In this document: piece after piece, positions 26,191-27,819 of the stretch
Layout of the letters: each line of letters starts with the position of its first letter
How positions within the stretch are numbered: the stretch's first letter is position 1
Assembly (NCBI RefSeq): GCF_003334815.1
Contig: NZ_QOWO01000004.1
Length of the DNA: 64,000 bases
Direction: 5' to 3' (one strand)
DNA from: Escherichia coli
Lineage (GTDB): Bacteria; Pseudomonadota; Gammaproteobacteria; Enterobacterales; Enterobacteriaceae
Program-made: the position numbers and the translations under genes
The notes under the pieces: generated by a model
The model's input: only the letters and a program-made list of their open reading frames with translations
What the model was told of the DNA's origin: nothing
Database searches by the model: none

Positions 26191-27819
26191 TTATCCACTG
26201 ATATTATAAAAACATTCAGCAAGTTTTATTAATTCACTATCACTACTATTTGATATTAGTTCAACACGATTTTCTTTGCTTGTAATAAAATAGTCACTAC
26301 CTATAGCAGAAAGATGTGAAAATGGTGATGTGCATTCCTTATCAAAAAGAGAACATCCCAAAAAATAGTTCATTGAATACTGAATCCCTAACATATGCAA
26401 TATTGTTGGCGCAAAGCTTAATGAGTTTTTACCGTCTGCATCCAAGAGTTCAGGAGAGATATTTCCTCCAATAACCAGAAATGGTATTTCGCCCACAAAA
26501 TAACGAGAATCGCTATTAAATGCTTTTTTATATTCTGTCGAGGGAAATGTTGAATGATCTGCTGTTATTATTAATAATGTATTATTATAAAATGAACTAT
26601 GCCGAAAGAACTCAACAAATTTTCCCAACTGAAAATCATAGTTATAGAATTTATTGTAGAGTGGGTTGCTACCATCAAAATATTTTTCATTTGGACTATC
26701 TTGTCCATGATGAGTACCAGATGGGTAGACACCAATAAAAAAGTGTTCCTTTTTATTTTCCTGAGAGCGTAAAAAATACTGCAGTGCATTAAATGTTTGC
26801 TTATCCGTCATTCTGTCTCGTTGATAACCAATAAAATTACCCATACCAAGGACTTTATCAAAATTGAGTGTCTTCAACATTGTATTGAGTGGGCTATTTT
26901 TTTCGGTGGAAGCTATAAAATAACTTTTATAACCATACTCTTTTAATATGTCCGGTAAAGATGTTTGACGGTGAAGGTAAATATTATTAATTTCTAAATT
27001 AGATAATTGTGCAATACCTGTACCAGTATCAGTAAAACCATCCCGAAATTGATAACCAGAAGTTAACTGACCTCTTAAACCTCGAAAGGTTGCAGCAGTA
27101 TGATTATAATAATTTTTAAATCTTAGTGCTTCAGTAGATAACTTATTTAAATTAGGTGTAACTGAAAATTCTCCAACTTTGGAGTTGCCCATAATTTCAG
27201 ATGAAAACCCCTCAGTAAATATGACAATAACATTACGGCCTTTGAAACTTTTGTTATTTTCAATAGGGTTAATAAAAACTCTTGTTTTTAAAAAATTTTC
27301 CCCTGCATCTCCGATCTTCTCATTAGGCTTAAAAGTTTGCTGTAAATAGAATAACTTTGCCGTTTCATAAAAAGCATATACTGGTCCTGCACTTATGAAA
27401 GAACACACAAGCAATAATACTATACAGAGAAGGTTGAGTTTATAATATTTAATACGCGCGATTACAGTACCTGAAGGCATCGTAATGAATGAAACTATAA
27501 CAAATAAAACAAACACAAAAACAACTTTAATTAGCTCACCGATGCCTAGTGATTCAATTTCTGCAGCATTCGACAAGGCAAGAGGCATCAAATATTGCCC
27601 TGAACTAAATAGCGACGCTGCCTGTACGCCCAGAATGGATAGATACCCCCCCCACAAAATATTGCTTACAATCTTTTTTTTTATCAAAAAAATTGCCACA
27701 CTTGTTAGTGTGTACTCAATAGTAAATATAAAAACACAATCCGTCCTTCCAGAGTAAAGTAGAATACTCACAAAAATACAGAAAGGCAAAATTATTCTAA
27801 TAATACACATAAAGTTCAT
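26191..27819 (-). CDS. membrane-anchored sulfatase/alkaline-phosphatase-superfamily protein (LtaS/MdoB/phosphoethanolamine-transferase-like), 542 aa
   Basis: Several N-terminal TM helices followed by a large hydrophilic domain; AT-rich codon usage like the O-antigen genes; sits between gnd and the first H-repeat fragment. Confidence 0.6.
   Translation of the reverse strand: MNFMCIIRIILPFCIFVSILLYSGRTDCVFIFTIEYTLTSVAIFLIKKKIVSNILWGGYLSILGVQAASLFSSGQYLMPLALSNAAEIESLGIGELIKVVFVFVLFVIVSFITMPSGTVIARIKYYKLNLLCIVLLLVCSFISAGPVYAFYETAKLFYLQQTFKPNEKIGDAGENFLKTRVFINPIENNKSFKGRNVIVIFTEGFSSEIMGNSKVGEFSVTPNLNKLSTEALRFKNYYNHTAATFRGLRGQLTSGYQFRDGFTDTGTGIAQLSNLEINNIYLHRQTSLPDILKEYGYKSYFIASTEKNSPLNTMLKTLNFDKVLGMGNFIGYQRDRMTDKQTFNALQYFLRSQENKKEHFFIGVYPSGTHHGQDSPNEKYFDGSNPLYNKFYNYDFQLGKFVEFFRHSSFYNNTLLIITADHSTFPSTEYKKAFNSDSRYFVGEIPFLVIGGNISPELLDADGKNSLSFAPTILHMLGIQYSMNYFLGCSLFDKECTSPFSHLSAIGSDYFITSKENRVELISNSSDSELIKLAECFYNISG

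Follow-up and report, generated by a model that had tools for sequence, protein, structure and literature searches.

The O-antigen gene cluster in a 64,000-nucleotide stretch of Escherichia coli DNA (RefSeq assembly GCF_003334815.1, contig NZ_QOWO01000004.1; hereafter, the window) ends, next to gnd, with a gene for a membrane protein of the sulfatase superfamily, and this raises the question of what such a protein would do there. A preliminary description of the window had offered two answers: the product could add a phosphorylated substituent to the O unit or core, or the gene could be a hitch-hiking passenger. We identified the gene as an intact allele of wekS, named from E. coli O2/O50, based on its high nucleotide identity to the known alleles and on its position as the last open reading frame (ORF) before gnd, after the insertion sequence (IS) ISAs1. 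Our analysis gives us high confidence that WekS is an active periplasmic transferase of the LtaS type and belongs to the O-antigen cluster. Beyond this, we favor a tentative reading, held at a little short of an even chance, in which WekS decorates the O-antigen with glycerol phosphate (GroP) in a phosphatidylglycerol-dependent manner in the periplasm; here we infer the donor, the transferred group, and the acceptor. The features of the gene are as follows.

26191..27819, (-) strand: wekS-like gene, encoding an LtaS-superfamily membrane protein of 542 aa, 100% identical to the annotated gene of NZ_CP047277
27337..27819, (-) strand: N-terminal membrane domain, residues 1-161, with five predicted transmembrane (TM) helices and a conserved periplasmic loop (Q66, N84)
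26383..27237, (-) strand: predicted periplasmic catalytic domain, residues 195-479, with the LtaS-type alkaline-phosphatase/sulfatase fold
27088..27090, (-) strand: codon of Thr244, the predicted catalytic nucleophile, invariant in the family and opening helix 244-253 in the model
27211..27213 and 26554..26559, (-) strand: codons of E203 and of D421-H422, the predicted metal ligands
26710..26712, (-) strand: codon of H370, the equivalent of LtaS H416

The ORF starts with ATG and runs for 542 codons with no internal stop, in line with what had been described. The Prokaryotic Genome Annotation Pipeline (PGAP) names the product 'LTA synthase family protein' (LTA, lipoteichoic acid) and calls only 498 aa, leaving out 44 N-terminal codons. 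We preferred the 542-aa reading because the O10 and O2 alleles conserve these 44 codons, which are under equal purifying selection. The gene is AT-rich, as had been noticed, with a GC content of 0.32-0.34; this was 0.28-0.34 in the other genes of the O-antigen cluster and 0.48-0.50 in gnd.

The N-terminal multi-TM region and the large sulfatase/alkaline-phosphatase domain of the preliminary description were both recovered. In the AlphaFold2 model (predicted local distance difference test, pLDDT, 82; predicted template modeling score, pTM, 0.73), helices span residues 3-22, 26-44, 49-73, 93-112, and 126-142, and the hydropathy profile agrees. Clusters of Lys/Arg at residues 47-49 and 120-126 form predicted cytoplasmic loops, suggesting that the catalytic domain faces the periplasm; the topology is thus probably that of an inner N-terminus, five TM helices, and a periplasmic catalytic domain. 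The Pfam Sulfatase model (PF00884) matched residues 195-479 over its whole length (positions 1-301 of 301, E 1.2e-24), and this significant full-length match to the hidden Markov model (HMM) places WekS in the alkaline-phosphatase superfamily. A profile search had been named as one test of the original proposal, and the expected domain was found. The closest fold to the catalytic domain was that of eLtaS, so that both this fold and the predicted combination of a polytopic five-TM anchor with an extracytoplasmic catalytic domain are those of LtaS-type enzymes.

The putative active site was also complete. Residues E203, T241, T244, D339, Y365, H370, D395, D421, and H422 were invariant in 77/77 family members sharing 29-60% identity, and the periplasmic-loop residues were nearly so (N84 in 76/77, Q66 in 71/77). 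In the HMM alignment, the Glu, the His, and the Asp-His pair of WekS fell on E255, H416, D475, and H476 of LtaS. By this alignment, the Thr nucleophile, the Glu/Asp/His metal site, and the second-shell His of LtaS-type transferases are all present, and WekS is predicted to be a competent enzyme with a full catalytic set. Homologs of 730-750 aa differed only by an extension at the N-terminus, in which no informative domain was found.

Compared with known enzymes, WekS appears from its sequence to belong to the LtaS/OpgB (glycerol-phosphate) side of the superfamily, not to the EptA/MCR (phosphoethanolamine) side. Both architectures had been allowed for in the preliminary description; the LtaS/MdoB part stood, and the phosphoethanolamine transferase part did not, as the combination of EptA_B_N and sulfatase domains above cut-offs that marks EptA, CptA, and MCR was not found. 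OpgB moves glycerol phosphate from phosphatidylglycerol to a glycan, and OpgB/MdoB, periplasmic like WekS, was its best NCBIfam match (E 1.6e-8); hhalign aligned the two with a probability of 98% over 276 columns. The scores with the OpgB equivalog models, 33.7 bits (cut-off 572) and 25.5 bits (cut-off 574), indicate a domain-level homolog only. Moreover, OpgB is a 763-aa product of a core-genome gene, whereas the 542-aa WekS is serogroup-specific. LtaS and LtaP of the Firmicutes share only 18-20% identity with WekS, which comes from a Gram-negative O-antigen cluster, and we found no evidence of a polymerising activity like that of LtaS. A close relative, VP1736 of Vibrio parahaemolyticus (PDB 3lxq), is itself uncharacterised and gave no functional information.

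The streptococcal enzymes GacH/SccH offered a parallel of another kind, being LtaS-superfamily enzymes inside a rhamnose-polysaccharide cluster. GacH decorates its polymer outside the cytoplasm, partially and non-essentially (PMC9574508). WekS is not a member of the GacH family by sequence or fold; the WekS family does share with it the location within rhamnose-polysaccharide clusters. In Streptococcus zalophi (locus L083, 9956..11530), a 524-aa WekS-family protein that is not a GacH ortholog is encoded between the gene for a 586-aa protein and a GacI-like synthase gene, in a rhamnose-polysaccharide cluster extending from GacA-like to GacI-like genes, and S. pacificus (L071) provided another case. 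From gene order, this is presumably the position of GacH in the gac cluster of S. pyogenes, which suggests a non-orthologous replacement within the LtaS superfamily. In O2-type clusters of E. coli, a GacB/Cps2T-like rhamnosyltransferase gene lies directly upstream of wekS. Like wekS, the gene for Pgt1 of the Acinetobacter baumannii K loci lies at the edge of a surface-polysaccharide locus, and its product is a predicted phosphoglycerol transferase. It differs in belonging to a capsule locus and not an O-antigen locus, and the likeness drawn here is one of position. Acinetobacter K loci differing only by pgt1 (KL2/KL81, KL3/KL22) have the same structure, known or predicted.

The surroundings of wekS in the window bear on whether it is a cluster member or a passenger of the adjacent IS.

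24647..26053, (-) strand: gnd, which bounds the O-antigen cluster downstream, co-oriented with the wekS-like gene
27825..28163, (-) strand: ISAs1 (H-repeat) remnant in two pieces, found by blastn against the intact ISAs1 of the O2 and O10 loci
28342..29472, (-) strand: GT4 (glycosyltransferase family 4) gene, the last glycosyltransferase (GT) gene of the cluster, 94% identical to the O10 enzyme
32667..33905, (-) strand: second ISAs1, a near full-length pseudogene (blastn 81% to ISAs1; PGAP 'frameshifted; internal stop')

The first remnant, comprising an internal 149 bp (28163..28015) and the element's last ~190 bp (28012..27825), lies between the GT4 gene and wekS. Thus, the H-repeat fragment had been correctly placed between wekS and the cluster, and the co-orientation of wekS with the O-antigen genes was likewise confirmed, the GT4 gene and gnd being on the same strand. 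An ISAs1 copy or remnant lay immediately upstream of wekS in each of the four E. coli alleles examined (that of O10, those of two O2 strains, and that of the window), and the O10, O2, and O1 non-A alleles share one junction, located ~195 bp ahead of the ATG.

Outside E. coli, no IS accompanied the gene in this slot. A homolog (41-45%) was the last gene before gnd in Salmonella enterica, Leclercia adecarboxylata, and Rahnella aquatilis; it lay 4-49 bp after a GT4 gene, in clusters of the order rmlBDAC-wzx-GT2-wzy-GT2-GT2-GT4 (without an rmlC call in Leclercia). Another enterobacterial genome contained an O2-type cluster (rmlBDA, fdtACB, wzx, GT4, rmlC, wzy, GT2, DUF1972-GT) followed by a homolog (55%) and gnd, and Silvania confinis showed a similar arrangement with a homolog at 61%, also without IS. 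Across these five genomes, the GTs and Wzy shared only 25-37% identity with their window counterparts, and WekS 41-60%. Because the IS-free slot is conserved outside E. coli, wekS is likely to have been present in the ancestor of both cluster types, with the IS a secondary feature of E. coli. On this comparative evidence, wekS appears to have long accompanied rhamnose-containing O-antigen clusters as an accessory gene and not as cargo of the IS. The E. coli WekS alleles, at 86-92% protein identity, form a single lineage, yet the genes upstream of them are otherwise unrelated, a pattern that suggests that the ISAs1-wekS-gnd end has moved by recombination. More widely, rml genes were found at most 10 kb from the homolog in 16/80 species-level loci, and the taxa concerned include Xanthomonadales, Pseudomonas, Lentisphaeria, Erysipelotrichia, Lactobacillaceae, Atopobiaceae, and Streptococcus.

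Some homologs had other settings. In a Stenotrophomonas sp. (L041, 9260..15726), the gene stands between etfBA/rmlBADC and an operon-like run encoding a protein with an MprF-type flippase-like domain, a UbiA-type phosphoribosyltransferase, and DprE1-like and DprE2-like enzymes; the run resembles a polyprenyl-phosphate-arabinose pathway beside a lipopolysaccharide (LPS) locus. Distant homologs (35-41%) in Serratia proteamaculans (L006) and Methylobacillus (L007/L020) stand alone, outside any polysaccharide locus, the former between fieF and cpxP-cpxRA and the latter adjoining dksA and cobW genes. A role in O-antigen biology need not be common to all members of the family.

Within E. coli, wekS was present in 161/5426 complete genomes, single-copy and chromosomal throughout, and most matches covered the full 1629 nt. 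At the nucleotide level, the window allele was 87-91% identical to alleles of the O2 type and 92% identical to that of O10, with like junctions, and the protein was 92% identical to the O10 and 86% to the O2 product. Matches at or above 99% numbered 9, as did the genomes with an A47-type wzx-mnaA region, and there were ~135 O2-type wekS matches for 133 genomes with the O2/O50 wzx; in both cases, totals were compared, not individual genomes. The O2/O50 genomes form two lineages, seen in both genes: against PSUO2, wzx was at least 99% identical in 63 genomes and 95-99% in 70, and against the window, O2-type wekS gave ~64 matches at 87% and ~71 at 91%.

The O10 genomes showed the greatest loss. 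Of 17 with wekS, 4 had it at full length and 13 kept just the last 579 bp, an IS-mediated deletion having removed the 5' two-thirds of the gene. These 13 belong to one lineage (E. coli C5, locus L015, 12706..14579), in which the deletion adjoins ISEc1 and an IS1 fragment. The same lineage has an extra acyltransferase gene, flanked by the GT4 gene and the IS elements. The gene is therefore dispensable, and the earlier placement of wekS outside the minimal sugar pathway agrees with these truncations and with the lack of a wekS-like ORF in other O1 clusters.

Where the gene is retained, it is under purifying selection in E. coli. The pairwise ratio of nonsynonymous to synonymous substitutions (dN/dS) among the O1 non-A, O10, and O2 alleles was 0.14-0.18 at a dS of 0.24-0.50, with the membrane and catalytic parts alike. 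A few genomes had frameshifts; in IMT5155, they come from four losses of a single base within homopolymer runs and probably reflect sequencing errors. The wekS of strain G5 was 7 nt shorter, in an assembly with many fragmented genes, which makes it uninformative on phase variation. An A9 tract (27674..27682) and a G8 tract (27646..27653) in codons 46-58 were found in this allele only, not in the O10 or O2 alleles nor in other genera. These could favor slipped-strand frameshifts; we found no evidence of phase variation of wekS. In a scan of positions 25900-28500, promoter-like sites did not exceed their frequency in shuffled sequences, and no convincing terminator was found between the GT4 gene and wekS.

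In the mechanism we propose, a divalent metal bound by E203, D421, and H422 would activate Thr244 for attack on the phosphodiester of a membrane phospholipid. The donor would most probably be phosphatidylglycerol, with release of diacylglycerol, since the closest relatives of known function (LtaS, LtaP, and OpgB) all use it. The enzyme-bound sn-glycerol-1-phosphate would then be passed to a hydroxyl of the flipped O unit or of the O-polysaccharide. The outcome would be a non-essential, probably substoichiometric anionic decoration of the O-antigen, analogous to that made by GacH on streptococcal rhamnose polysaccharide and by OpgB on periplasmic glucans.

Several points weigh against a GroP decoration of the O-antigen. 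All NCBIfam scores were far below the curated cut-offs, so WekS is not an ortholog of any named enzyme. The glycerol-phosphate contacts of S. aureus LtaS (H347, D349, W354, and R356) correspond to I302, S304, S309, and L311 of WekS in the HMM alignment, which is weak here; as the contacts of LtaS-type transferases are not kept, the head-group pocket of WekS would seem to differ. The FWNR motif is not found in OpgB either. In all four E. coli alleles examined, an ISAs1 element or remnant separates wekS from the rest of the operon, and any WekS product is not needed for O10 synthesis, since the gene is truncated in 13/17 O10 genomes. Finally, no phosphate or GroP substituent on O1B/C, O2/O50, or O10 was reported in the literature searched, which was available in part and did not extend to the primary structure papers. 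Delannoy et al. gave the sugar compositions of O1A and O1B/C with no mention of phosphate, and the accessible part of the Liu et al. review likewise mentions none for the O2/O50 main chain or the 4-acetamido-4-deoxyfucose (Fuc4NAc) of O10.

A modification can nevertheless escape notice where it is partial or easily lost. The decoration of the group A streptococcal carbohydrate was missed for decades. GroP is present on only ~25% of the side chains of that polymer and may be lost during extraction or purification (PMC9574508). This makes a missed modification plausible and proves nothing for WekS. More speculatively, and with a probability that we consider low, WekS would represent a second lineage of GroP or related phospho-alcohol transferases, apart from GacH, for rhamnose-rich polysaccharides of Gram-negative and Gram-positive bacteria, and the O2/O50, O10, and A47-type O1 O-antigens would have a cryptic, partial anionic decoration missed by classical structure work.

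Among the competing explanations, the foremost is that WekS is active on another acceptor, namely periplasmic glucans, enterobacterial common antigen, lipid A-core, or protein. This would account for the silence of the literature, as far as it was accessible, on a substituent of these O-antigens, and it is in keeping with the stand-alone genes of Serratia and Methylobacillus and with pgt1, which lies in the Acinetobacter K loci without a detectable role in capsule structure. We nonetheless regard it as unlikely: the place before gnd is kept in the five further enterobacterial genomes even where the GTs and Wzy have diverged to only 25-37% identity, with WekS holding at 41-60%, the rml link recurs across phyla, a homolog fills the GacH slot in Streptococcus, and E. 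coli K-12 already has OpgB for glucans. Next in our ranking, and also improbable, is a transferase of the same periplasmic type that moves another head group onto the O-antigen or core, either phosphoethanolamine from phosphatidylethanolamine or another phospho-alcohol. WekS shares with EptA, EptC, MCR-1, and Opt a membrane anchor, a Thr nucleophile, and, by proposal, the periplasmic decoration of LPS, whereas it lacks the Pfam EptA_B_N domain and its similarity to them in fold and sequence is much lower.

A gene without present function, dragged along with ISAs1 beside gnd and now decaying, is considerably less probable. The shared ISAs1 junction of the four alleles, the loss of the 5' two-thirds of wekS in 13 O10 genomes, and the few frameshifted copies are what this explanation would predict. 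Against it stand the low dN/dS over that range of dS, the intact catalytic residues, the predominance of full-length matches, and the occupation of the same slot in other genera without IS, and the apparent frameshifts of IMT5155 look like sequencing errors. The cargo alternative raised at the outset is therefore disfavored. A true sulfatase, or another hydrolase that would strip a group from some periplasmic substrate, receives very little weight. Sulfatases carry the formylglycine motif Cys/Ser-x-Pro-x-Arg, and WekS has instead T244-F-R-G-L-R-G-Q-L-T-S at the nucleophile position; its five-TM anchor and best fold matches are also those of lipid-dependent transferases. The least probable explanation casts WekS as a YejM/PbgA/LapC-like protein, regulatory or lipid-binding and without catalytic activity. 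The NCBIfam score for this group was 19.3 bits against a cut-off of 825, the nucleophile and metal ligands are invariant across the WekS family, and wekS belongs to a variable polysaccharide locus present in a minority of E. coli genomes, not to the core genome. The sulfatase, the YejM-like regulator, and the phosphoethanolamine transferase were each rejected as the primary reading.

As to what was already known, the name wekS and the PGAP family annotation preceded this work, and the domain call is an ordinary one. No functional study of wekS was found in the literature searched, and the accessible part of the Liu et al. review does not discuss it. One report labels wekS a glycosyltransferase (PMC4013041), a label contradicted by the domain analysis. 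On O-antigen clusters that encode a sulfatase, a phosphoglycerol transferase, or an LTA synthase, the same literature search returned nothing relevant. Two observations are new with respect to it: across genera, both O10-like and O2-like clusters contain wekS as an ancestral member with no IS, and the WekS family tracks rhamnose-polysaccharide loci across phyla, including the replacement in the GacH slot.

Both O2 and O1 count among the major serogroups of extra-intestinal and avian pathogenic E. coli, and O-antigen conjugate vaccines against extra-intestinal pathogenic E. coli (ExPEC) include O2 and O1A. If O-antigens of these types do have a wekS-dependent anionic substituent, the real antigen, its charge, and its interactions with phages and antimicrobial peptides would change, and the known cross-reactions among O1, O2, O10, and O50 might be affected. 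The WekS family would also provide a testable candidate for GroP decoration in organisms without GacH. If there is no substituent, wekS is a well-conserved orphan, and its retention in ~133/133 O2/O50 genomes (a comparison of counts) needs explanation.

The layout of the cluster accounts for the company in which wekS is found. In the window, the order is his - wzzB - ugd - gnd - wekS - ISAs1 fragment - GT4 - GT - wzy - GT2, continuing with the ISAs1 pseudogene - GT - mnaA/wecB - wzx - rmlCADB - galF - wca. This is the mosaic "A47-type" O1 non-A cluster of Delannoy et al. 2017. These authors described in strain A47 an O1-like 5' half, a wzy and three GTs ~90% identical to those of O10, and a last ORF with 91% identity to wekS of the O2 strain G1674; their other O1 clusters have 10 ORFs in the order of G1632, without the wekS-like last ORF. 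The second ISAs1 lies at the join of the O1-like 5' half (rmlBDAC-wzx-mnaA-GT) and the O10-like 3' half (GT2-wzy-GT-GT4), so that the two H-repeat elements (27825..28163 and 32667..33905) flag both recombination joints of the mosaic. The window was 99.98% identical to NZ_CP047277. The latter has an extra tandem copy of ~170 bp between the GT gene (29482..30426) and wzy (30604..31647), corresponding to window positions 30473..30589 and to 21590..21644 of the NZ_CP047277 locus (L001), and there the PGAP call for wzy is only a 109-aa EpsG fragment.

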